NCBI GenBank assembly: GCA_052327205.1
Contig: CM126230.1
Span: 29,326,001-29,390,000 of the forward strand
Source: Somniosus microcephalus
Taxonomy: Eukaryota
DNA: 64,000 nt
Direction: 5' to 3'
Shown: piece by piece, positions 1,846 through 56,292 of the stretch
Layout of the letters: the number at the start of each line of letters is the position of its first letter
How positions within the stretch are numbered: the first letter of the stretch is position 1
Program-made: the position numbers and the translations under genes
Notes under the pieces: model-generated
The model's input: only the letters and a program-made list of their open reading frames with translations
The model's database searches: none
What the model was told of the DNA's origin: nothing

Positions 1846-3750
1846 TTTTAGAATAAGAATTGGAAAGAGAGATAGAGATATCACCATGAAAATGTACATG
1901 AGAACCATCAAGAAAATGAGTGGAAGAGAAATAGAAAGACTAAAAGAGGAACACAGGCAATCTGAGTGTGGAAAACAAGCACAGAGTTAACCACAGGAAG
2001 TTGTCTATAAGCAACTTATACAATAACACACTGTAGCGTCGTATAACCCTCCTGTTTTTCTAAACCGTGTCCTCCAACTCACCCTGAGCAATGCCACAGA
2101 AGCTTCATTTATTCTAATTATAAATATTTTTTCAGCTCAAACATGTCGTATATTTTGAATTTTCTGCAGTACAGCAATTTGTGTAAAACCAGTCAATGTA
2201 ATATTTTATTTCCAATTTTTTTCCTTTCACAAATTAATTCTTGCTCAGTGGCACTGTCTCAGGCTTTTCCTTTAGAAGAGAATCCATTAAAGTCCCTCTT
2301 ATCATCAATCAAAATATCATTTGGGCCTTATTACTCTATTCATTTTTAATCACTTTGTACTTTATGGTGTGGGCAAAGTTCCAAGTTCTTACGGTTTCAC
2401 TATTTTCAGATGAAAACTTTCAAAATAAGTTACTTAAATCTCCCTTAGGTGCGATAACGGCAGCTCGCTATGAGCTGAAATCTGAACCTTTTGATCTGCC
2501 TTGCACAGGCTAACACTCCTTTCATCCTCGCAATTATGAAATGTATTTATTTTGGGGCACTATTTGCAGATCTGTCTGTGAAAAAGATCTCAGAGCCTCA
2601 GTGTATCAGAGCTCATCTGCTGTTTGCATTTCCAACACTGGGCCCCACAATCAGACATGATTTATTTGTTACTGTTACATTTTGGACAGCATTTCTGTGG
2701 TTTGTTTAGATTTCTGTCAAGCCCTAGGATATTTTTTTGGCTTAGGCAAACTCTTTGGAAGTGGCTTGTGCATGAAATACAGCAGAGTGGGTACATTTTT
2801 GACTAAATTTATAATTGTAAAGATGATGGATAGAGTAAAATTACTATTCCCAAATGTACAGTGTCAATTATCAAGATAATATGCCAAACTGCCTCAAAAA
2901 TAAATACAGATAAAAGGTTTGGTGAATGAGAACTATTCATACTGATTACTAAATACAGGATGTCACACTGGTAGCCGAGCATTACGGGAGTTCTTTTACA
3001 AGTTTGAAAGACCCATAACTCATCTGTGGCAAAGTTATGAAGTCTTTCCCACAAGTAAAATAAGCTTTGCCATTCACCCGCATCAGTGGTGTATTCTTCG
3101 AAGAGTTGTTTAATGTAAAATGCACTAAATTTAGCCTATGGCCTACGCCCTTTGGGTTTGTGCTTTTCCTTGTAGTCTTCCGCCCCTCCCGCGCCCCCCC
3201 CCCCCCCCCCCCCAAATCTTGGCTGGATCTAGATACTTTTACTGACGGCTTGTATGAAATGTAAGTAAATTAATAAGGATCCAGTTTTGAAAAGTTGATA
3301 GATTCTCTGCCACTTTGTTGCATCTTCTCTTGAAACATGACAAAATTGTGCTTTTGTTCCAGTCTGTTACTTTTAGTGGGCTTGCAACAAAACTGATGCG
3401 GGCAAGGCAGAAAAGCTGTGGAAGTGCGGGGAATATCTCATATTGGTACTGTCTCTGACTGACTGATTTGGAGCAAGGTGGTAGAAGAAATACTGCAATC
3501 TTTACCACTAAATTTTAAAGCCAACACTTCAGAGTAAGTGGTGGAAATCGACAAACAAATGTGCAGTGCACATCAAATAATGTATAGATTGTATAGGGAA
3601 ATATATCATCATGCATTGAAACCTATTGTAGGCAAGGAATACACTTATACTTCATAGTAAAATTAGTGATCCCAGTTTAATGAAGTATGGTGTAGACAAG
3701 TTGAAATTTTAAGATGGACTTTTTACCTGGGGAGAATCCCAGTTCTGTAT

Positions 3751-4055
3751 TGTGGCGGAGACCACATAGGGACAATAACACAATATATAGCCAATGTTGT
3801 TATATGTACCTAAACACAATTCACTATGTATAGCAATGTTGTTATATGTACGTACTGGGTTGGGTTATCGGTGCAGGGTCCCTTTAAGAGTGTCGGTAGC
3901 GTGATGACGTCATGACGTCGGTTGCGTGATGACGTCATAGCCCCTGCAACGGGGCTGAGACCTTCAGTCCTGGTGGAGAGTGAATAAAGTAAGACACATT
4001 TTGCCTTTGCTGCAACAAAAGTCTCAGAGCCTGTTGATTTCTATCGACCCCAACA
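3751..4055 (+). repeat. 5' LTR (305 bp) of CsRn1-clade element
   Basis: Direct repeat of 7875-8162; AATAAA at 3983-3988; TGACGTCA at 3905 and 3930. Confidence 0.95.
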
Positions 4056-4056
4056 T

Positions 4057-4067
4057 TGGTGACCCCG
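4057..4067 (+). promoter_or_regulatory. Primer-binding site, tRNA-Trp
   Basis: TGGTGACCCCG 1 nt after the LTR, complementary to the tRNA-Trp 3' end ...CGGGGTCACCA (tRNA sequence from memory). Confidence 0.85.
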
Positions 4068-4103
4068 CTGCTCTTTTGGACGATTCCAAAGACCTCATCC
4101 GAA

Positions 4104-7100
4104 ATGGCGACGAACGCCGTTTCCATCAAATTACCCAAGTTTTGGGAACAACAGGCTGTCGCTTGGTTCGCCCAGGCCGAGACTCAATTTGCACTCCGGG
4201 ACATCACCGCGGACGACACGAGGTACTACTACGTCGTCTCTGCTCTCGGCAGCTCCACCGCGGCCAGAGTCATGAGCCTGCTCGAGAACCCCCAAGAGCT
4301 CAACAAATATGAAACGCTGAAAACGCACCTCTTAGAGACTTTCGGACTCACCGAAGCCAAGCGCGCACGCCGGCTTCTCTCTCTACCCGGGCTTGGCGAC
4401 TCCAAGCCCTCGGAGCTGATGGACCACATGCTGGCCCTCCTGGGCACACACAGGCCGTGCTTCCTCTTCAAGGAACTGTTCCTTCAACAGCTGCCAGGTC
4501 AGGTATGGTCGGCTTTAGCCAACTCTTCCACTACCGATTTCCACGACCTGGCCAAGGAGGCCGACAAATTTTTCTCCGCCGGGCAACAGTACTGCGCGGC
4601 CACACGGAGCCCTGCCCCCACCGATACAGCCCAACGGCGGCAGCCCCCAAGCCTCTGCTTCTACCACGCGCAGTTCGGCCCCAAAGCCAGGAAGTGCCGG
4701 CCCCCGTGCAGTTTTCCCGCATCAAAACAAACGAAAGACCACTCGTCGGCTGCTATGGCTGTCGGCCGTTCAGGCAGTTTGTTATTTATTACAGACACCG
4801 ACTCCAGACGTCATTTTCTTTGCGACACGGGTGCCCAGGTAAGCGTCCTGCCCGCGTCAACCATAGACATTCAAGGGGGGAAACCACGGCCCCGTCCTCG
4901 AAGCCGCCAACGGCAGTTCCATCCGCACCTTCGGGAAACGGAACGTGGCGCTTTTTTGTTTTGGCGGGCAGCGGTTCACCTGGGACTTCGTCACGGCAAA
5001 AGTGTCCACCCCCCTTCTCGGCGCTGACTTCCTCTGTGCCAATGGCCTTTTGGTGGACGTCAAGAACTGACGTCTCATCAATGCTGAGACTTTCAGCTCG
5101 CTCCCGTGTTCCCTCAGCAGGTCCTGCACGACGCACTTGTCCAGCGCACTCTCGACCTCCGACGAGTTTTCCCGCCTCCTCGCCGAGTTCCCGGACCTCA
5201 TGAAGCCCACATTTTCGTCCGCCGCCACCAAACACGGGGTAGAACACCACATCTCGACCACCGGTCCACCCGTCTACGCCCGCGCTCGGCGCCTCGACCC
5301 GAGGAAACTCTCCATCGCTAAAGCCGAGTTCGACACCAAGGAGCGCCTCGGCATCATCCACTGGTTGAACAGTCCGTGGGCATCGCCCCGAAACCAGGCG
5401 GCGGGTGGTGCCCGTGCGGCGATTACCGGCGCCTCAATGACACGACGACCCCCGACCGCTACCCGATTCCACACATCCAGGACTTTTCCACCCGCCTGGC
5501 CGGGAAAGTGGAATTATTGAAAGTGGACCTCGTCCGGGGTTTCCACCAGGTCCCTGTCCGACCGCAGGATGTCCCGAAAACCGCGGTGATCACCCCGTTC
5601 GGGCTGTTCGAATTCCTCCGCATGCCATTTGGCCTCAAAAATGCCGCCCAGGCTTTTCAACACCTAATGGACGCCATGTTACAGGACCTGACATTCCTGT
5701 TCGTATACCTGGACGACATCCTCATCGCCAGCACCTCCAGGACGGAGCATGTGTCCCACCTCCAGACTCTCTTCGAATGCCTCAGCCAGCATGGCCTAAT
5801 CGTCAACCCGGCCAAGTGCCAGTTCGGGCTGTCCTCGATCGATTTTCTCGGGCACTGCATCACGAAGGACAGGGCAGTGCCACTGCCATCGAAAGTGGAG
5901 GTCGTGATGGACTTCCCGCGACCCCTCACCGTGAAGGCCCTGCAGGAGTTTTTGGGCATGGTGAACTTTTACCGTCGCTTCGTCCCCCGAGCAGCCCAGC
6001 TTATGCGGCCCCTTTATGAGGCCCTCAAAGGCAAGCCCGACAAGCTCACCGTCGACTGGTCCGAGGAGATGGCCAATTCTTTCACGGACACGAAAAGGGC
6101 CCTGGTTAATGCGACAATGCTGGCGCATCCGTTACCTGATGCGCCGATCACTCTCACCACCGATGCCTTGGACTATGCGGTCGGCGCTGTCCACAAACAG
6201 TGGGTCAATGGCACCTAGCAGCCGCTCGCCGCCTTCAGCCGGCAGCTCTGCCCCAACGAGCGGAAGTACAGCACCTTCAATCGCGAGCTTCTCGGCCTCT
6301 ACCTCGCCGTCCGACACTTCTGTTTCCTGCTGGAGGCCCGCCCGTTCATGGCGTTCGTGGACCGCAAGCCGTTGACCTTCGCCATGGCCAAAGCTTCCGA
6401 GCCGTGGTCGGCCCGTCAGCAACGCCAGCTGGCCTTCATCTCAGAGTTTACAACAGACATCCAGCATGTGACTGGGAAAGACAACCCCGTCGCAGACTGT
6501 CTCTCCCGAGCCGTCGCCAGCGCCGTGCACCTCGGCATCGACTACACCCGCATGGCGGTCGACCAGGCCTCCGACCCGGACGTCCAGGCCTACAGGACGG
6601 CGGTCACGGGCCTTCAACTAGCGGACGTCGCGTTCGACGATGCCGGCACCACACTCCTGTGCGACGTCTCCGTTGGGCAGCCACGTCCCGTTGTGCCCGA
6701 CGGGTGGAGACGGCAAGTTTTCGACGCCGTCCATAATCTTTCCCACCCGGGCAGGAAGTCGTCACAGAAGCTGGTGGCGGCTAAGTTCGTCTGGCACGGG
6801 CTTAGGAAAGACATTCGCGACTGGGCCAGCACCTGCGTGGTATGCCAACGCTCGATAGTGCATTGCCATACTTTCGCGGTGCCCGAGAGGCGGTTCGACC
6901 ATGTTAACGTAGACCTGGTGGGGCCCCTGCTGCCCTCCCGCGGGTTCACCCACCTCCTCACAATGGTCGACAGAACCACCCGATGGCCGGAAGCCGTCCC
7001 GCTGTCTTCACCGACGGCCGCCGATGTGGCTCGGGCGTTCATCAACACTTGGGTCGCCCGGTTCGGCGCCCCATCTGACGTCTCCTCCGACCGGGGCCCC

Positions 7101-7937
7101 CAGTTCACGTCAGAGCTCTGGAACACTGTCGCCCGAGGCCTCGGGTTGAGACTCCACCGCACCACAGCATACCACCCTCAGGCTAACGGACTGTGCGAAC
7201 GGTTTCATCGCTCCATGAAGGCCACGCTCCGGGCCAGCCTCCGGGATGACAGCTGGATCGACAGACTCCCATGGGTTATGCTGGGACTCAGGACCGCTCC
7301 CAAGGAGGACCTCCAGTCCTCGTCCGCCGAACTCGTCTACGGACAGCCGCTGCGGGTTCCCGGGGATTTTGTCCCCAACGCAACGGAACCTTGGTCCGCA
7401 GCCCGTCAGTGGTCCGACCTTCTGGACAATGCCAAGGTTTTCGCACCGGCGTCCACATCGCAGCACGGCCTCCCGCAGTCCCACGTTCTGCTCGCCCTTC
7501 GTGCGGCGGAGCACGTTTTCGTCCGCCATGACGCCCACCGGGGACCTCTTCAGCCACCCTACGATGGACCATTCCGCGTCCTGGAAACCGGGGACAAGAC
7601 CTTCGTAGTGGATGTCGGCGGTAAGCCGGACTGCATTTCCGTGGACCGTCTTAAGCCGGCCCACCTGGATCTGGACCGACCCATTGAGTTGGCACAGCCC
7701 CCGAGGCGGGGCCGACCTCCGGTTTCCGCACCCTCAGTCCGCCACCGAGCACCCGAGGTCCCTCCGATGAACCCCCGCAGTCCCCGCCCCGGAATCGAGG
7801 AGCTGTTCCGACCGTGTGATCCGGCCCCCCCAACGACTGACATTGCCAGTGCTAGTGAATTCTGGGGGGACGTATGTGGCGGAGACCACATAGGGACAAT
7901 AACACAATGTATAGCCAATGTTGTTATATGTACCTAA
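4104..7937 (+). pseudogene. gag-pol of CsRn1-clade element with frameshifts and stops
   Basis: Gag AVSIKLPKFW...CFYHAQFGPKARKCRPPC; protease FLCDTGAQVS; RT YLDD; RNase H TTDALDYAVG; integrase HNLSHPG..CVVC, DDE core, PPYDGPF. Frameshifts near 4880 and 5385; stops at 5068-5070 and 6216-6218. Confidence 0.9.
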
Positions 7938-31478: not shown

Positions 31479-32163
31479 TATGTTTGACAACTCTCCAGGA
31501 TTGTCCTGGAGTCTCCCGGAATGAAAGATTAATCTCCAGGACACTGCTACGGGCAACCCGTATTCATTTTCTGTGAACATTTATTAGTTATAAAAAGGCT
31601 GTTTGACTGACGGTCAAGCATCATCCAATTAAGAGCCTGTTTGCTTTCCAATTGCCAAGGGAAAGCGGAGTGCGCGAGGATGGATGGGTTGGGAGACCCG
31701 GGTTGGGAGACTGATGTTGGGAGACCCCAGGGTTGGGAGACCCCAGGGTTGGGAGACCAGGGTTGGGAGACCCCAGGGTTGGGACATCAGAGTTGGGAGA
31801 CCCCAGGGTTGGGAGACCCCAGGGTTGGGAGACCAATGTTGGGAGACCAGGGTTGGGAGACTGATGTTGGGAGACCCCAGGGTTGGGAGACTAATGTTGG
31901 GAGACCCCAGGGTTGGGAGACCCATGTTGGGAGACCCCAGGGTTGGGAGATCAATGTTGGGAGACCTCAGGGTTGGGAGACCCCAGGGTTGGGAGATCGA
32001 TGTTGGGAGACCCCAGGGTTGGGAGATCGATGTTGGGAGACCCCAGGGTTGGGACACCAGGGTTGGGAGACCGATGGCGGGAACGTGTGGGCGGAGCAGT
32101 TGGCGGCAGGAGGTTGTGAGAGGAAACCTCCAGGAATGTGTCCAACAAGAGTTGGCAGCCCTA
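31479..32163. mobile_element. hAT-type MITE containing an expanded minisatellite
   Basis: 8-bp TSD ATAGTGAC/ATAGTGAG; ends TATGTTTGACAAC / GTTGGCAGCCCTA; homologous to 19596-19871. Confidence 0.8.
31686..32072 (+). repeat. G-rich minisatellite, 14-16-bp units GGGTTGGGAGACC(CC)A / TGTTGGGAGA
   Basis: Roughly 25 tandem units read directly. Confidence 0.95.
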
Positions 32164-33323
32164 ATAGTGAGGGAAGTTGTGATGGCCGTTTTGGACTACA
32201 GGTACCATCCAGCGTGGCTGGATACAGGGGAATGACCAGAACATGTGTTATACACATGTTAAAGCACATTGTCCATATGCATAATTCACTATTTCACCAC
32301 GTTTTTCTCCATGATTACTTCAATACTGAATTGGACCCTGAAAATTGGACATTAGGGAACCTGGGAGTAAATTAGCATCTTTGGCCTGATGGTCCTTGTG
32401 ATTCTCATGAATTATAATCAATCATACTTGTAAAAGCACTCCCATCACAAACTCTCAAACTACCAGCACAGTGACATTGTATGATTCATTACTGCGATTA
32501 AAAAGTCTGCCAGTTCCTTTCTTTTTCATCCAAAATTCATTTTTGCATCACTAATTTGCGAAGGATTTTATACAAAATGTAACCATATGTCCAATATCAA
32601 AATGTGTAAAGCTGCCAGAGAGAGGCATGGTGAGGTAAATACAAGTAAATGGATGGGAATGTTACCATAACTTGATTGGAGAATGACAGGGTTCAGTTAC
32701 TTCAGCACAGCAATCCAGAAAATTACTTTTACTTTTTGAAAATGCACAGCTAAAAGGCAAAACAACACCAGTAAACTGTTGGAAAACACGTTTGGGCTAC
32801 AGCGCCTTCAAAGGGAAGTACCAGATGCCAGAAATGTTGCATTTAATACATAGAAGGTAGCTCCTCTCGATATTTCCGAATACTAATTCAGCTGTTACAG
32901 TTAATCTACATTGTTTTTCTCTAGCTTACAGCAGCCATTTTCTGTTGGGAGAGATCAGTTTGTCACCATGTGGCAATGCCATGGCCACGTGAAACTCGAA
33001 ATGCTGACTAAGGCGGTCTTTTTTAAAGTTTCTTTGGAAAACTTAATCAAATCTAGGTTATGCGAAAGGCTCATTGAGTAAAAGCACCACCTAGTCTGGT
33101 AGTGAGCCAAATAGGCTCAGATGGTCCTATACTGCGCTCTGATTTCTGCAAGGACATGGTGGGCTGCAGCATTTGGAGAGGGGGAAAAATCAATTGAGGT
33201 TCCCACTCCTGATCACCATCCTGAAATTGTGCATGTGTGGAGATCAAATAAGGCTTAGCTTTTATGGTGCCCACATTCAAATAGCCTGTTGTTCACCTGA
33301 AGAGGGGCCATTTGGAGAGGATT

Positions 33324-47270: not shown

Positions 47271-50036
47271 TACATTTGTACAGGCACCAAGGGCTCTTTA
47301 GTATCTTGACCATTGGCAATCCATCCGGTTTGAGCTCGACAGTGAATGTTGCTCTGCTGATCAACTGCAGTGGGCATCATGGCCAAGCCTCATCCTAAAA
47401 TGATCTGAGTTCCCTGGCATAGGTCGCTGGATTGAAATTGGGATCCTGGCTGAATTCTTTTTATCCCCCCGCCACTTTCCTATCCCAAGACTCTGAAGCA
47501 CTTCTACCGCCAGGTCAACGCAGACTAGCAATTGACCCCATGACCTTTGTGGCCTGACCAGTGCCATATCACACAGGGTGGTGATTTTACCAAGAGAGCA
47601 ATCGGGGAAGCCATTTCCACCATTGTAACCAAAGCTAGATGTATTCCTTTGTTTACGCACCACTATTGTACTGTAAATGGGTTTCTGTGGAAAGTAAGCC
47701 TTAAAATGTTACCATATGCTTGTATTATATGAATTTTTCTTTGCAGTACTTCGCAGTAGCTTTATAACTGTTCAATAAAGGCCGTTTGCTTTGAAGAGTA
47801 TATAAACGAGATTGGATTTCTGCCTTATTTCCTGTCGACAGTGCTGTGTGGAAATTCTTCCACAAAATCCTACAGGGCATCAAAGACAGGAATAAGGTGG
47901 AAACACAATCCATTGTGTGCCTCGAGAAGTTCACCTTCCGTACATGTCCAGTTCACTTTCAGTACACGCACGGGTCACCTTCAGTACACATACATTATAG
48001 CTAGCGCGCACAAAAATACACTGGGCAAAGTTGGGGTGGGGGAGGGGCGCGGGTGGCGGTGTGGAATGTTTTCCTGGGTGTGAAAGATTCATAACCGCTG
48101 AATAATAAAGTCCATCCACCATTTCCAGCCCAGTCTGATGCTGCTTCTGTCTTTCTGTTTGTCTCCTTTTAAGAAGCCAATTGTTTGAAATGTTGCACAG
48201 TGCGAGGTAAACTTTACTGGCCCGCTCCTCTGTCTACAGGCCACTGCTCTGAGTGTTAATAACGAGCTCACAGACACCCACAAACAGACCTTATTATTTT
48301 TTCACAGGCACAATTGTTTCACTTTCAATGCAACAAAATAACATTCTGCTGTTGAGAAATTGTTACAAGTAGAAAGTTGAATTTGGACTGTCTGTTAATT
48401 GCGAAAGCGTGGAATTGTATTTGAAAGCTGAGATAACGATTTATTACTACAGAAGGATCAATTGCCTCAAATTATAGAACAACTGGACTAAAACAGCACA
48501 ATATGGTCATTGTACAGTGTGAAGTAAATAACAATAGCATCTCTACATACTGCCGTAGGATCTTCAATTCAGAGAGCTCACGAGGCGAACAAACACCTAT
48601 GCTTATCACCCGTTGTGGAAAATTACTAGCAGTTAGGAGTTTTCATAGGCACAGTGCTGAACATGCCCCCGGGCAGTGTTGCTTCACTGATGGAGATGCA
48701 TCTACTGCAGCATAGTGCATGTTGCGCCGTGTTTAACATTAAACTGGCCTGGAGCTCTATTTCAGTTTGTCTTGAGTTTAAATGCAAACACTGAAAAGCT
48801 TGCTGGAAACAATGACATTTATTCACATTATCAGTCGCCACGAGGGTCTTTGAGGGAGACTGTTATTTCTTCCGCGTATACAGGAAGCAACTGCCCCCTG
48901 GAGGTGAAGGTTGCTTATAATGAAGAGCGTGTGATTGTGGCTGTGCTCTGACAATGTCCAGTTATGGATTATCTGAAGCTGGCTTTGTTACAGGATCAGC
49001 GCTGTTCAAAACTTGGCTCCATGCACTGGCAGTTCTATGATGATTTAACTTAAATATACTAGTTAGGAGTAAAATAAACCTTGTGTGGTCTTCGTGGCTG
49101 TCTTACATCAATAATTATCTCCTGAAAGTCAAGATTACGATGCGTTAAAATATATATAGAGAGAGAGAGAGACAAAGTGGTTATACACAGCAAGCTAAAC
49201 TAGTGCTGCAATATAGTGATGATTCAGTAACTTGTATTACAAACGGAAAAAGCGACAAGACATATCAATATAAATAAACTACCCTGAAAATCTGCCAGAT
49301 TATAAAAACACAGGATTAAGTAGACTTGGTTTAACAAGTCACTGTTGCATTGTATATGTTATGAACAATGTCATGTGCATATCCAGGCTCCAATCTATGT
49401 TTTTCCTTACAACCCACACACATCACTTTTGAAAAACCAGGAAATTAATACTCATTTTACAGACCATTCACATTTCAGCTTGTCCTGCAATACATCCAAA
49501 TCTAATAAAAACAGTGATATAATAGTCCACCGTGTGTTTGATGGAAAGTAAACCTTTATTCTTTGCAGGAGGTTCAAACATCTGTTCAGCTCCAGAAGAA
49601 TTAAAAGTGAGGTTTATCTCTTTATTTTAGGTAGAATACAATTGCAAATATTTAGACCGGTTTCACTTAAAAGAAAAAAAACTGTCTCCATCATTTTCCT
49701 TTCTGAGATTAACAGCACAATTAACAGCTCAGTTATAAATCCTGTAATGCTTTCAAACCGTTTCGACTGCCAAACACCTCTTAAATAGCTACTAAAAATG
49801 AGACACTAACAGGACATGATCTCCAACTACACTATCCCCCAGAAGTCAATAAATGTCCACACTGCGTTCCACTTTAATCCCCATTACAGTCCATGGGCTT
49901 AGTTCTATCCAAGAATTTAAGTTATTGTGTATAAATTTAACACTATTTGATTTTCCTAATTATATTTTGAGTGTACCTGATTAATGTAAACTTAACTCAT
50001 ATACAACATGTACAGTGTGTGTGTGTAAGTAAGGAG

Positions 50037-50293
50037 TGTTGTGTATGTAATATGTGTGCTACTTTGAACCTATGGACAGGACTGCACTACTTGTTGGGCG
50101 TAGTGATACGCAGTACCACTCCTGGCCATAGGGGTATAAATAGTACTGTGGGTACTGATCTCCCCTCAGTTCCCGCCTGTGGGCATGAAGTAAAGACCTA
50201 TGTATAGTCCCTACCTCTAACCAGTAAAGACCTGTTTTATTGTTACTGATTAAGTCTGAGTATTAATTACTTGAACAACTCACAGATTTAACA
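50037..50293 (+). repeat. 5' LTR
   Basis: Identical to 53366-53622; TATAAATA 50135-50142; AGTAAA at 50189 and 50223. Confidence 0.95.
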
Positions 50294-50294
50294 C

Positions 50295-50304
50295 TGGCGA
50301 CGAG
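50295..50304 (+). promoter_or_regulatory. Primer-binding site, tRNA-Ser
   Basis: TGGCGACGAG, complementary to the tRNA-Ser(GCT) 3' end ...CTCGTCGCCA (from memory); typical of Mag elements. Confidence 0.85.
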
Positions 50305-50856: not shown

Positions 50857-53049
50857 ATGCCTAAACACGGGAATATTAGCAACTTTGATAGTGACATCGA
50901 AGATTGGGCCATATATGTTGAACGAGTTAAAAATTATTGTAAGGCCAATAAAATTCATGAGGCTGATAAAGCACTAACATTATTAAATTTAATGGGTGCG
51001 AAGACATACGGGCAATTGAAACACCTGTTATCACCAGATGAACCGGCGGATAAGACGTTCGATGAGATTGTTACTGTCCTGAAAGATCATCTAAACCCCA
51101 CGCCGCTGATGCTAGCGGAACGATTTAAATTTTACGACAGAAGGCAGCTACAGCATGAAAGCAATGCTGATTATTTGCTGGAATTGCGTAAATTAGCGAA
51201 ATATTGCCAGTTTGGAACGGGACTGACAGAGGCACTTCGAGACAAATTTGTGTGTGGTTTATTTAAACAGGATACACAAAAGCGACTGCTCGAGGAGAAT
51301 GAGCTGACGCTTGAGAAGGCGGTCACTATGGCAGCAGCACACGAAGCCGCAGCGAGAGGCACGGCAGTAATGCAGCTACGGTCACCGGAGCTCAGTGCAC
51401 ACAAATTGGGTGTGAGTTCTGGCAAATGTTATCGTTGTGGAAAGACAACGCATGATCAGAACCAGTGTTGGGTTAAAAACCAAGAATGTAGAACTTGTGG
51501 TAGGCTTGGACATATAGCTAGAGTATGCAGGTCAGCGAAGAAGACCAGCAACAAGAAGTCACCGCAAGGAAAATACGCAAAGGTACACAAGGTGACCGAA
51601 CAGGAGTCCGATTCAGACGCTAGCAGTAATGAACTGGCTAGCTTAAGAGTACTCAACGCTGGTAAGGGTGCAGACCGCCAGACAATTTGGGTCACTCTTC
51701 AGATAGAAGGAGTCCAAGTAAAACTGGAATTGGACACTGGATCGGCATTGACGGTCATAAATAAGAAAGATTACGGAAAGTTATTCCAACATATTCCCCT
51801 ACAGGATACGGGGATTATATTGGAAACATACACGGGGCAAAGAGTGTACCCCATCGGGAAAATAGAGGTTGCAGTGGTCCACAAGGGCGAAGACAGTCAA
51901 ATAATGGACTTATATGTGATATCTGAAGGAGGTCCTCCACTACTAGGACGGGAGTGGATTAGGAAAATGAATATGGACTGGCATTTCCTACAAACAATAA
52001 CGAGTGAGAACTCGGTGAAGATAGTCGGCCCAGACTCTGGAACGGATGATGGTAAGCCCAACTCAGGTGCAAAAGACAAAGTTTCAGCACAGAATTCCAC
52101 TGAGCAACAACAACATAGTTTAACTGTGGATTCTGAGTCTGGCAAGTCTACTGATGTGCCCATTTCTGAGGGACACCGGGCTCGAACTCAACTCCATTTC
52201 AAACTACAACAGCAATTAGAACAAATGCTTCGCCGTTGTGAGCAAGAGTTGAATGCAACGAAAGAGTTCTTTGATATAGAGTTGGAGAATCTGGAAAGAC
52301 AACAGAAGCAGCTGATGGAGAAAATGGAGCAGGAGCACACAAAACGTCTGATGTCAGAGGAGTTAACGGTCAGCCAACTCCTGCATATGCTGAAGGACAG
52401 GACTCTGAAATGGGAAAAACTTGAACACGAACTTCAATATTCAAAGGAAAGGGGTTCGGAGCTATCAAAGGTTATTGGAAGAGCTGAGGTGGCAACACAG
52501 ACTGAGATGACTGCAACAGAGCAGCCCTTGGATGCCAAAAGTACGCTGACTCACGTCAACGTAGAACAACAGACCGCTGAAACAGCTGCTCCGGTAGAGG
52601 GATTGAATAGTCCGATCAATCAATCTCCAAAAGAAGTTGAAGTAGTAAAATCTCAAATGAGGTCATTAGTAAACGACTTGCTGAAAGCCCAGAAAAAGCT
52701 GGATGAAGAGGTACGCATGAAGAAGTCTCTTCAGGAAAGATGTCTGGACTTGGAACAAAAGCTGGCTAACGCCCAGCTGGGTATGGAGGAAATAGAAGAC
52801 CCTCTCGCTGGCCTAGATCAGGACGACACCGAATATTACTATGTCCTGTCCTGCCCAACTTGTAACTTCGACTCCCACCATACAGAAATCATGGAGGAGC
52901 ACCGAAAGTCTACGGAACATCGGGAGAAGGTGGCTCTACTACGGAAAAAGGAGGGAGAGAAGGAGGAACTGCGCATGCAGCTGGCAGCTGACAGTGGAGC
53001 CCAGAGAGTCTCCAAGAAGCAGAAAAGGAAAAGTCGAAACAGAAGATGA
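50857..53049 (+). CDS. 730-aa Gag-protease fused to STK10/SLK-like and optineurin-like coiled coils, a U1-type zinc finger and a basic tail
   Basis: Mag Gag ([19 protein letters not shown]), two CCHC knuckles 51427-51528, protease DTG 51733-51741 and LLGREW; host-like segments 52168-52350 and 52357-52764; CxxC-x12-H-x5-H 52852-52920. Confidence 0.92.
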
Positions 53050-53352
53050 CCCATCTGAACCATTATTACCTCTACCAGATCACACACGTGGTCCCTCCGA
53101 ACGGAGCCAATTCAGTTCGGAAGTTCAAACTGTTAAATCCATGGAAGGACTATTGAATGAGTCACTCCAGCAACGTGAACCGACTCCACCACAGAGATTG
53201 AATCTGTGAACTGTTTTCCGCAGAGACTGAATCTGTGATCTGTTTTGACATGAAGTTATCTATGTATCTATGTTATTCTGTTATGTAAACCTGAAGTTAT
53301 ATATGTATATATGTTATTACGTTATGTTAAATGGGGAGATGACTGTAAAGCT

Positions 53353-53365
53353 AGGAAGGGAGGAA
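53353..53365 (+). promoter_or_regulatory. Polypurine tract
   Basis: AGGAAGGGAGGAA abutting the 3' LTR. Confidence 0.9.
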
Positions 53366-53622
53366 TGTTGTGTATGTAATATGTGTGCTACTTTGAACCT
53401 ATGGACAGGACTGCACTACTTGTTGGGCGTAGTGATACGCAGTACCACTCCTGGCCATAGGGGTATAAATAGTACTGTGGGTACTGATCTCCCCTCAGTT
53501 CCCGCCTGTGGGCATGAAGTAAAGACCTATGTATAGTCCCTACCTCTAACCAGTAAAGACCTGTTTTATTGTTACTGATTAAGTCTGAGTATTAATTACT
53601 TGAACAACTCACAGATTTAACA
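53366..53622 (+). repeat. 3' LTR
   Basis: Identical to 50037-50293. Confidence 0.95.
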
Positions 53623-53737
53623 AGGAGATGGGGCAAAATTAGTATATGTTAATACTATCTAGGAGGCCTGTTTGCTTAAATCCAAATAGAGGTTTTTACT
53701 TTCAAGCCTTGATGAATTGCAGCATTTTTTAAATCCA

Positions 53738-56292
53738 TGTGGAGTACTGTATCGTGCTGAGAATGTGTGTGTTGTATGGGGAGTCCTGGGAAAGGAAGTG
53801 ATGTCATCAAAAGGTCAAAGGGGTTCTGCCATTTTGTCTGTGCTAGCCAATTGCTCTTTGTGTTGAGGCTCCTTAATAAAGTGCTTGTTCCTTTTATAAT
53901 TAGTGTCTGATTACTCCAGTGGTACAAATACATTACAATTGTTGAGCAACAGTCAAAACCTTGCTAAAAAGGATAAATTGGGTAAACTCCCACATTTTGA
54001 TATGAAAGGGGTCCATCACACAGCTGGTCAAAGATGGATGTAGTGAATTAGAGCATTTAGAGACATGAGCTAAACTATGCAAGATTAAGGTGTTAGGCAG
54101 TTCTTCCTTTCCCAGGGAATAGTGAACCTCTGGAATACATTGCCGGCCGGTGCGGTGGGTGCTTGAGTCTCTGGTCTCTGCCTGCCTTCAAGAGGGAGTT
54201 GGGCCGGTTCCTGACTGAGGCAGAGATCACATCATATAGAAGGTAAGTGGCTTTACAGACAATACACAGTCCATGTGATCTCCTGGCCTGGTTTCCTGGA
54301 TTTTTCTCAGTTTTTTTGCATCTCCCACAAGACTACATGACTGGGGGGCGGGCGGAGAGGAGTGTCTAGTCATGATTCTCCAGCCATCATGAGCGTGGGG
54401 CAGGCTTGATGGACCAGCTGGTCTTTGCCTGCCCGACATTTTATACTTAGCTAGCCGAGGTGTCACCTGTGAGGGGCAGAAGGAGGCTTGGCCTCTGCAC
54501 TCTGTGGGATTGGAAGTGCAAGAATTGTTCTTTACCTGCTGTACAGATGCAGACTCGCGTGGGTATGAGGGCCCTCTTGCTGTCTTGAACAATCATTTTG
54601 CACCTAAGGTCAGTGTAGAGTTTGAGAGGTATGTTTTCCACCAATACTGCCAGCAAGGTGGGGAAACTGTAGAGAGGTTTGTGTGCCAAATGGGCATCAT
54701 ACCTACAGAGTATTTTTGGCTTGGTGTAGTATAGCCCCAGCACTTCTGCCCGAATTAGTGACAGTTGCAGAAATCTTACAGTGGCTGACGAGAATGGGTA
54801 CACCTTTACATTGGGGGTCAAAGGCAGCAAGGAGCTTTGGAGGAAGGATTTTTGACCTAGTCCGTGGATTTGGCATCGTTAGCTCGAACTTCCAATAGTG
54901 ACAGATGTGAGTCTGATCAGATTAGGTGCGGTGCTGATGCAGAAACAGGAAGGCGCGTCGAGAGCCATCAGTTCGGCGGACAGGAGTTTGACCGATGTGG
55001 AAGGGCAGAGAGAAAAGGAGGCGTTGGCTGTGGTGTGGGCATGCGAGTGCTTCAACATTTGGCCAGGAGTTTGAATTGGACATGGGCCATGAGCCGTTGG
55101 CGCATCTTTACTCCAAAACATTGAAGGCTAAGGCTGAGTGTTGGGTTTTGCAATTACAGCCGTATGACTTCAAGGTGATTTACAGGCCAAGGAAACAAAG
55201 CCCTCCTGACCGGTGTTGGCCAGGAATGGACTGGGACACGGAACGAGTGTCCGAGCATCCAAGCGCTGCTGTGGTTCCCAAATGGTAGCGCCAAGTGCAC
55301 AGTGGCAGGATCTGGCGATGGACCTTATGGGACTTCTACTCAGTGGCAAAGATTTGCTGGTAGACGTGGACTACTACAGTCCTGCGAACTGACAATGGTA
55401 GGCAATTTGTGGCTGAAGGGTTTAAACAATTTGTGGAGGAATAAGGCGTGAAACATTGAATTATAGCCCCGCACTGGCCATAGCCAAATGATTAGGAGTG
55501 GCCAAATGGGATTCTAATGAAGGCGCTACAAGTGGTGCAGGCGGAAAGCAAAGATTGGAAGCAGGAAATGGTAACCCTGCAGACAGCAATGGGTGTGACT
55601 CCAACTCTGTTAATGTTTGGATGCAAGTTGCGGATGAAGTTGCCAGAACTACGGCACATTGGCCAGATGAGGGCTATCGAGATCAGACACAGAAGCACAA
55701 AGTGAAGGGAAGGCATGTGGCTGCCACTGTGGAACCTCAAGCAAGGTTAAGGTTGGCGATCAGGTTTTGGTGAAGGTGCTGAAAACAGGTAAAAGGTAAA
55801 CCCGAACTCCACACTGCAGTGAGGAGAGAAGGAGAAGTCCCCAGCCAGGGTGAATTTTAAGCAGAACATGTCCCTTGTAAAGAAGTGGGCGGGAGAGGCG
55901 GATGATCAGTCAGGGAACAAAGCTGGAGGGAAACGGTTGCAGATGGATAAGGAAGAAGAGTAGGTGCTGAAGGAAAATCGTGAAGGGAGACCAGAGGTGA
56001 GTTGTCAGGAAGGGTCTCAGTTAAGAGGGAAAACTCGTTGGGTCAAGGACTTTGTGATGATTGAGTGAAGCAAAAATAAGGGAGGGATGTAGAGCACTGT
56101 ATAGTACTGAGCATGTGCGGGTTGAGTGGGGAGCTCTGGGAAAGGAAGTGATGATGTAAAATGGTGGAAGGGCTTCTACCATTTTGTTTGTGTCTTGCAT
56201 TTTACTGTGTGTGTGTGTTGAAGCTACAAAATAAAGTGTTTGTTCCTTTGATGATAAGGGTCTGAACACTCCAGCAGTACCAATACACTACA
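53738..56292 (+). mobile_element. Old, heavily decayed Gypsy LTR retrotransposon
   Basis: Diverged LTR pair 53738-53937 / 56088-56292; PPT 56078-56087; flanks ATCCA/ATCAA; remnants of Gag (HFAPKVSVEFERYVF), RNase H (EKEALAVVWACE, WVLQLQPYDFKVIYRP) and integrase (WQDLAMDLMG, VDYYS). Confidence 0.8.
54060..54450 (+). mobile_element. CR1-type LINE 3' fragment nested in the old Gypsy
   Basis: GIVNLWNTLPAGAV-like ORF2 end and tail GGCTTGATGGACCAGCTGGTCTT. Confidence 0.55.

Follow-up and report, generated by a model that had tools for sequence, protein, structure and literature searches.

How do LTR elements come to carry host coding sequence? In retroviral transduction, host exons are fused in frame behind Gag by template switching, and the product is helper-dependent. 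Unlike transduction as we know it, the locus described here has no env, has amplified in the germ line, and carries no catalytic domain (the STK10 kinase is absent).

The closest described systems are LTR-mediated retrocopies and circRNA-derived pseudogenes. In the retrocopies as presented by Tan et al. 2016 (PMC5131818), which include maize Bs1, internal ORFs are replaced by intronless host sequence between two LTRs, the switch points show microhomology (median 6 bp; 11, 6, 9, and 7 nt here), several parental genes contribute, ORFs can be in frame, and sense co-transcription and further rounds of retroposition follow—all features of our locus as well. The templates there are mRNAs, with no word starting with "circ" in the main text, whereas the first template here was very probably a circle. 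Bs1 is described at one to five copies, whereas we count ~9,500 junction matches, and parent and intermediates coexist. The circRNA-derived pseudogenes of Dong et al. 2016 (PMC4897178), whose retrotransposition mechanism that text leaves open ("mysterious"), share with our locus a non-colinear back-splice junction in genomic DNA, the lack of poly(A), and an LTR context. The class that they rate as low-confidence, in which only circle exons are present and the junction has disappeared, fits the copy described here and perhaps its OPTN cargo. Unlike those pseudogenes, reported at 33 to 42 copies and of varied length, the copies here comprise exactly one lap, both switch points map on an identified parent, the cargo is in frame with Gag-protease (Gag-PR), and more than 1,000 copies bear the junction.

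Plant TR-GAG elements, as described in PMC8704663, likewise have LTRs and one ORF without reverse transcriptase (RT) or integrase, and are mobilized in trans. Their ORF is Gag only, whereas ours adds protease and host cargo, and the example given derives from Copia, whereas ours belongs to an animal Ty3/Gypsy lineage. A literature search with limited coverage of subscription papers, repeat databases, and supplements returned neither a description of this element nor any case of a circRNA captured in frame over one lap; the supplements of Tan et al. and Dong et al. may list comparable cases. Four features are new with respect to the closest known systems: the identified parent, a geometry of exactly one turn, coding cargo that is in frame, and the scale. 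The main result, the probable circRNA origin of the STK10 cargo, was absent from the initial annotation of this DNA.

A gag-protease element with spliced host sequence

The window—the whole 64,000-nt stretch analyzed here—contains a 3.6-kb Ty3/Gypsy gag-protease element with identical LTRs (0 mismatches over 256 compared bases, the first base being read from the sequence) and a 5-bp target duplication (Table 1). Its single ORF (50857–53049, 730 aa) runs from Gag through protease into host cargo, and a Pfam domain search found neither RT nor integrase in the element. The TG...CA LTR pair and short target-site duplication are those of Ty3/Gypsy elements. The Gag with CCHC knuckle and the aspartic protease were assigned from sub-threshold Pfam matches, from 77% DNA identity of gag-PR to that of a pol-bearing parent family, and from relatives whose protease passes the Asp_protease_2 cut-off. 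The autonomous order of RT, RNase H, and integrase is absent here and present in that parent family. On sequence grounds, the element classifies as a young, non-autonomous Ty3/Gypsy derivative.

Table 1. Features of the element (positions in the window)
Feature	Position	Strand	Basis or remark
Left target-site duplication, AGGAG	50032–50036	+	Right copy 53623–53627; read from sequence
5' LTR, TG...CA, 257 bp	50037–50293	+	Same sequence as 3' LTR
Primer-binding-site-like motif (putative), immediately inside 5' LTR	50295–50304	+	Sequence; label presumed from general knowledge
Gag, start of the 730-aa ORF; two CCHC knuckles at aa ~191–225	50857–51660	+	Pfam, below cut-off
Aspartic protease, DTG motif intact	51691–51975	+	gag-asp_proteas E 0.0024, below cut-off
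STK10 exon 9, two remnants; start of the probably circle-derived cargo	52002–52171	+	In-frame deletions of 93 and 69 nt
STK10 exon 11 (3' part) spliced to exon 12 (5' part); first PKK coiled coil	52168–52350	+	
6-nt microhomology of the 318-nt in-frame deletion, STK10 exon 12/OPTN exon 5 join	52345–52350	+	
Spliced OPTN exons 5 (part), 6, 7, and start of 8 (OPTN 226–384)	52342–52793	+	
8-nt microhomology and short STK10 exon 8 remnant (MEEIED) of the 159-nt in-frame deletion	52783–52800	+	
240-nt insert: C-x2-C-x12-H-x5-H finger (52852–52920) and basic tail	52801–53040	+	Not OPTN, by sequence comparison
STK10 exon 8 end spliced to exon 9 start, past the stop codon	53041–53161	+	
Remnant of the parent's integrase C-terminal tail, out of the ORF frame in family C	53162–53209	+	Frame +2 ORF; parent tail
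Polypurine tract	53350–53365	+	Sequence
3' LTR	53366–53622	+	LTR comparison

Which host genes contributed the cargo? The initial annotation had recognized three peptide blocks of optineurin (OPTN) at 52357–52764. They lie there in frame, and the match is real, with an aligned part slightly wider than proposed. In a protein search with residues 500–730, optineurins were the sole matches (21 of 1,777 candidates), the best being that of Pristiophorus japonicus (72%, E = 1.8e-48), and element residues 496–646 align to residues 226–384 of the optineurin P0003. At the DNA level this part consists of host exons 5, 6, 7, and the start of 8 without introns (80–93% per exon); the host gene was placed on C17 of the genome. 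The piece covers the central coiled-coil region only. Mapping onto the P0003 domains bore out the view that the TBK1-binding end, LIR, and UBAN are lacking: the window piece contains no NEMO/TBK1-binding domain (P0003 44–111), LIR (185–188), UBAN (497–590), or zinc finger (641–666). Residues 345–462 of P0003 resemble a NEMO fragment in PDB 3cl3 (E = 4e-6), which we take to be the vFLIP-bound part of NEMO, and overlap the C-terminal end of the captured stretch. The assembled host exons 5–6 (C17, ~85884780–85885370) contain two single extra bases relative to the element copies; these shift a frame kept by shark orthologues and reflect either an assembly error or a recent host frameshift.

The in-frame fusion of OPTN to STK10 sequence also held, with a Pfam PKK match (E = 5e-8) and shark STK10 matches of 77–80%. 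Residues 380–510 match STK10 (208 of 711 candidates), the named matches among the 120 listed being STK10 or unnamed serine/threonine kinases. Host STK10 lies on C8, where the intron between exons 10 and 11 is of the GC-AG type and is correctly spliced in the captured copy. Because the cargo matches host OPTN and STK10 exons with the introns removed, both templates were spliced RNA.

Judged by its sequence, the zinc-finger-like tail is not OPTN. An 11-residue motif near the ORF end had been read as an OPTN motif, but it sits in the 240-nt insert, which has no protein match to OPTN, and one subfamily copy lacks the motif. Compared with the 70-kb host OPTN locus, the insert gave no match at E 1e-3; a laxer run returned a 25-nt antisense match (E = 0.004) and a 13-nt match (E = 0.56). 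No donor was found among longer proteins, and a DNA search of the genome with the tail gave no match, probably an effect of the skipping of common words. The tail's best Atlas score, 0.89, fell short of the useful mark, and the zf-met/zf-C2H2_jaz clusters are no more than leads. A HMMER search on representatives gave four weak matches—two generic zinc-finger proteins and two repeat-rich ones—and a PDB search with the cargo gave nothing meaningful. The finger ligands C, C, H, and H are kept in all four tail variants among 30 family C copies, while neighboring residues vary. RNA reads that skip the insert exist. The tail protein query, dominated by element copies, returned 16,350 first-look candidates (not a copy number) versus 4,308 family C junctions; the tail may be present beyond family C, or some candidates may have been counted repeatedly.

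Origin of the STK10 cargo and the series of families

Where did the STK10 cargo come from? Relatives of the window element were exposed by searching the genome with host parts absent from the window. In the family we call A (10 loci examined), STK10 residues 375–704 are followed by residues 290–388; at the DNA level the order is exon 9 (3' part), 10, 11, 12, 8, exon 9 (5' part). The 12-to-8 join is a nucleotide-exact exon 12 donor/exon 8 acceptor, with only AG common to both. Back-splicing is the usual source of such non-colinear exon junctions. Exons 8–12 total 1,245 nt, in frame and without a stop.

The parent of family A has the order PR-RT-RNaseH-integrase. An exact pattern for the protease-side flank has 17 matches in the genome; among the 10 that were read, seven run into RT, two are A' copies (below), and one carries another cargo. 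A single site in STK10 exon 9 matches the parent twice, over 11 nt of its PR-RT linker and over 6 nt of its integrase tail; the integrase-tail junction was seen in three of the five parent loci fetched. Family A has exactly 1,245 nt between the two parent sites, entry and exit falling at the same base. Entry and exit at one base, together with the back-splice junction, point to a single lap round a circle. Thus, it is very probable, from the sequences compared, that the parent lost RT-RNaseH-integrase to exactly one turn of an STK10 exon 8–12 circle. An exact non-colinear back-splice junction, the mark of a high-confidence circRNA-derived copy, is present in family A/A'. In the window copy the exact junction is absent, having been replaced by OPTN in the B lineage, and the permuted exon order left by the circle remains: the STK10 exon 8/9 piece at the 3' side sits after exon 12 sequence. 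Counted against the circle step is that element transcripts also carry the exon 12-to-8 junction.

A linear STK10 template—either a trans-spliced mRNA with repeated exons or a tandem duplication of exons 8–12 that was later lost, with the same history otherwise—is very unlikely, given the single copy of each exon in 140 kb of host locus, the absence from A, A', B, and C of any STK10 exon outside 8–12, and the commonness of back-splicing as a source of such junctions. It would nevertheless yield the identical junction, non-colinear junctions can arise otherwise (a caution in the text of Dong et al., PMC4897178), both parent sites resemble the same STK10 motif, which would be enough alone to fix the exit point, and no inverted repeats today link the introns flanking STK10 exons 8–12 (nor those flanking OPTN exons 3–8).

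On the circle reading, the RT-RNaseH-integrase region would have been replaced by host RNA via microhomology-guided template switches, the first template being a co-packaged circSTK10(e8-12). A single lap would result if, as general retroelement biology suggests, RNase H removed the template behind the enzyme. A 417-nt deletion gave A', the acquisition of spliced OPTN exons 3–8 gave family B, and in-frame deletions plus the zinc-finger-like insert gave family C. With the parent, both switch points, and the exact one-lap length visible in one genome, template switching of an LTR-element RT onto a co-packaged circle becomes a concrete, testable mechanism. Three older relatives of the gag-PR lineage (65–70% DNA identity) lie in or beside host STK10 on C8, one of them in the 15.5-kb intron upstream of exon 8; it is speculation that transcription near them could have favored co-packaging.

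How did family A give rise to the window element? Copies of A' (loci L144 and L149) keep the back-splice junction and have lost 417 nt. In family B, spliced OPTN exons 3–8, LIR included, replace ~100 nt around that junction. This cargo starts 8 nt into exon 3, stops 4 nt short of the exon 8 end, has microhomologies of 9 and 7 nt at its two ends, and retains OPTN ~131–421. Twenty B loci, drawn from matches to an OPTN C-terminal query and hence not a random sample, all have the order STK10-OPTN-STK10, identical outer ends, and the LIR core FVEI; 19 of the 20 have an identical OPTN start. The chances that the OPTN cargo, too, came from a circle are about even: its ends lie within 10 nt of exon borders and no back-splice junction was captured, and by rough reasoning a near-complete lap would give such ends.

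Family C arose from B through four deletions, 93, 69, 318, and 159 nt long, and the gain of the 240-nt insert. The 318-nt deletion joined STK10 exon 12 to OPTN exon 5, removing OPTN exons 3–4 with the LIR. The STK10/OPTN junction to which the initial annotation drew attention is therefore not the capture point but a secondary, in-frame deletion within a longer B-type cargo; the microhomology that it proposed to look for near 52351–52362 is present (CGTCTG) just to the left of that range. Microhomologies recur in the series: the two switch points on the parent have 11 and 6 nt, the two ends of the OPTN cargo 9 and 7 nt, and the C deletions 6 and 8 nt. The chance of one of at least 6 nt is ~0.003 per junction. 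Junction searches gave 1,139 matches for A/A' (≤2 mismatches), 4,050 for B (≤3), and 4,308 for C (≤2), ~9,500 for all families together, and 0 for controls.

In a gag-PR tree of 30 natural copies, parent, A, and B are intermixed, and C lies ~0.28 substitutions per site away. The C cargo is ~90% identical to that of B, whereas its gag-PR and LTR are far more diverged; we infer that recombination supplied C with the gag-PR and LTR of another lineage. A search with one exact pattern for a pol-bearing element with C-like gag-PR gave two matches, neither a parent. Family C also occurs in head-to-tail arrays (G000 C3:263215394-263225755 and C5:158675374-158679365), whose spacing of ~3,330–3,370 nt is consistent with shared LTRs. 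At locus L157 (~3230–3620), an A'-like copy runs from STK10 exon 11 into another coiled-coil-like, host-looking sequence that ends before a LINE-like insertion. This may be a further capture; Pfam and PDB gave nothing clear, and we take it to be putatively cingulin-like.

The captured product has escaped pseudogene decay: it is in frame with Gag-protease, took a second host RNA and a third insert, and has descendants with abundant transcripts. The series can serve as a model of how LTR elements shuffle domains serially in vertebrates, and it contributes to a genome of 6.45 Gb that, judged by the protein matches above, is a shark's.

Selection and the possible role of the cargo

Is the captured sequence maintained by selection? 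For gag-PR, ω is 0.19 (p = 6e-25; maximum likelihood [ML], C versus one B copy). For the cargo versus the host, ω is 0.54 (p = 0.02, ML), and for its OPTN part 0.51 (p = 0.06); at codons where the host and a B copy agree, OPTN ω is 0.43–0.52 (p = 0.03–0.11, three B copies). We quote ML values because counting-method ω varies with the assumed transition bias (cargo p 0.0005–0.07). Variants common to at least 2 of the 30 C copies look constrained in Gag (14 nonsynonymous:12 synonymous) and OPTN (9:8, p = 0.056) and not in PR, STK10, or the tail, with ω ~1 for PR and STK10 (five regions, uncorrected). In 10 B copies ω is 0.30–0.93, with one of the 10 significant; B copies are so close to the host gene (dS 0.03–0.06) that their retention of the LIR cannot show selection.

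The reading frame has been kept as well. All six deletions on the path to C are multiples of 3 (93, 69, 417, 21, 318, and 159 nt; 1 in 729 if independent), as are the four indels common to at least 3 of the 30 C copies. Behind the present stop codon, two further deletions (66 and ~36 nt) likewise have lengths divisible by 3, so the in-frame excess may partly reflect mutational bias or older selection. Amino acid changes in the C OPTN piece fall on 16 of 90 conserved and 11 of 58 variable sites (p = 1.0; conservation scored across 14 shark and ray optineurins), giving no sign that an OPTN-specific surface is kept. Overall, the cargo appears only weakly constrained (ω ~0.5, p 0.02–0.1). Neutral decay, which the initial annotation had named as telling against a function, does not describe these copies: the ORF stays open, and the constraint, though weak, is probably nonzero.

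The reading we favor, with moderate confidence, is that the element provides Gag-PR, packages its own RNA, and relies on RT and integrase from elsewhere, its cargo being an in-frame historical passenger under weak, generic constraint. From general retroelement biology, the elements would make their own Gag-PR and obtain RT and integrase in trans. The cargo would persist mainly as a weakly constrained, in-frame coiled-coil extension that keeps the ORF open to the basic C-terminal tail, avoiding a long 3' UTR, and the protease may release it. Counted against this reading is the constraint on the OPTN piece (the lower range given above), unneeded for a pure spacer.

Could the cargo instead be a working part of the particle? 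Captured coiled coils (STK10 PKK, OPTN), finger, and basic tail might aid Gag multimerization, RNA binding, and nuclear entry, with selection acting on helical character and charge rather than on host-specific surfaces. Consistent with this, every identified cargo is a coiled coil (and L157 has further helical-looking cargo), the finger ligands are kept while their neighbors change, the ORF ends in a basic C terminus in the parent and in A, B, and C, and ω ~0.5 without sparing of host-conserved sites fits generic constraint. However, the purine-rich codons of coiled coils may do no more than provide microhomologies, and the cargo, which follows the protease, may be removed by cleavage and has been deleted and replaced repeatedly. 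On balance, we consider a structural role unlikely.

A decoy function, proposed by the initial annotation, is quite improbable, and the window piece gives it no sequence support. The OPTN coiled coil, released by the protease or displayed on the particle, would oligomerize with host optineurin or compete for its partners, blunting autophagic or TBK1-linked clearance—an effect more plausible for the LIR-bearing B than for C. Optineurin is described as oligomerizing (PMC5962687), and autophagy receptors as clearing retrotransposon RNA (PMC9096704, citing Guo 2014); background on OPTN in general is from these papers and PMC12651866. The invariant LIR core in the B loci examined, the roughly fourfold greater number of both OPTN-bearing families, B and C, than of A/A', and the lowest ω within the cargo for the OPTN part would all suit a decoy. 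Yet C lost the LIR and still reached its 4,308 junction matches, B and C are without the TBK1-binding, UBAN, and zinc-finger parts, so that of the known interaction modules the window piece has none and B the LIR alone, and changes strike conserved and variable OPTN sites alike with ω at borderline p values. The closeness of B to the host gene and the scatter of ω among B copies argue in the same direction. Complex prediction for the C fragment with OPTN 226–400 of a related shark, without alignments, gave a score of 0.09, which we counted neither way. We infer that the family C cargo does not act as an optineurin mimic.

A bolder scheme, in which the lineage preferentially packages host circRNAs, captured at least two of them serially (circSTK10 e8-12 and circOPTN e3-8) by one-lap copies, and uses the coils as working parts of its polyprotein (an LIR fragment diverting autophagy in B, a trimmed coil with a new zinc finger in C), is decidedly improbable; if true, protein modules derived from circRNAs would here have driven, in nature, a transposon burst in a vertebrate germ line.

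Age, expression, and neighboring features

How recent are these families, and are they expressed? B and parent LTR pairs are ~98–100% alike, and dS between A and host STK10 is 0.016–0.026 (three copies). Among the first 30 C copies on C1, 22 span the ORF unbroken, two are partly unbroken, four have a premature stop, and two a frameshift; a script flagged 21 as unbroken, and three with an 18-nt in-frame gap that had been split in two were added by hand.

Two RNA-seq runs, which share their species label with an element-bearing genome and whose counts pool related families, contain 18,403 of 16.65 M and 16,737 of 14.40 M reads matching at ≥90%, or ~1,100 reads per million for the family, and 5,354 and 5,776 reads at ≥99%. 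In most ORF bins of run X23, first mates on the minus strand outnumber those on the plus strand ~9- to 29-fold, a sign of sense RNA according to the mapping tool's note; the strand skew in run X24 is far smaller. Because reads leaving the window sequence at 52350 continue into B-type sequence (376 and 286 reads), B is expressed too. Thus, B-type and C-like RNA is made, in sense. In 176 and 215 reads, the OPTN exon 5 part is preceded at 52360 by a sequence other than the window's, which suggests another expressed subfamily with a different junction. Run X11 (organism D) was rejected as a second host, its junction depth of 2–8 being too low for a multi-copy element. In RNA-seq data, the more than 1,000 genomic copies of the back-splice junction will look like circSTK10, and the STK10 and OPTN fragments, which number in the thousands, will confound both annotation and the estimation of expression.

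The window holds other repeats as well. A second, unrelated, GC-rich Ty3/Gypsy element lies at 4038–7937, with gag, protease, RT, RNase H, and integrase-like ORFs split over several frames. Just to the right of the insertion, at 54500–56000, are degraded gag/pol-like fragments of another LTR element, labeled by eye from an ORF (54393–54734) and a shift in GC and skew. Finally, a short-period tandem repeat at 31611–32375 gives long low-complexity open frames.
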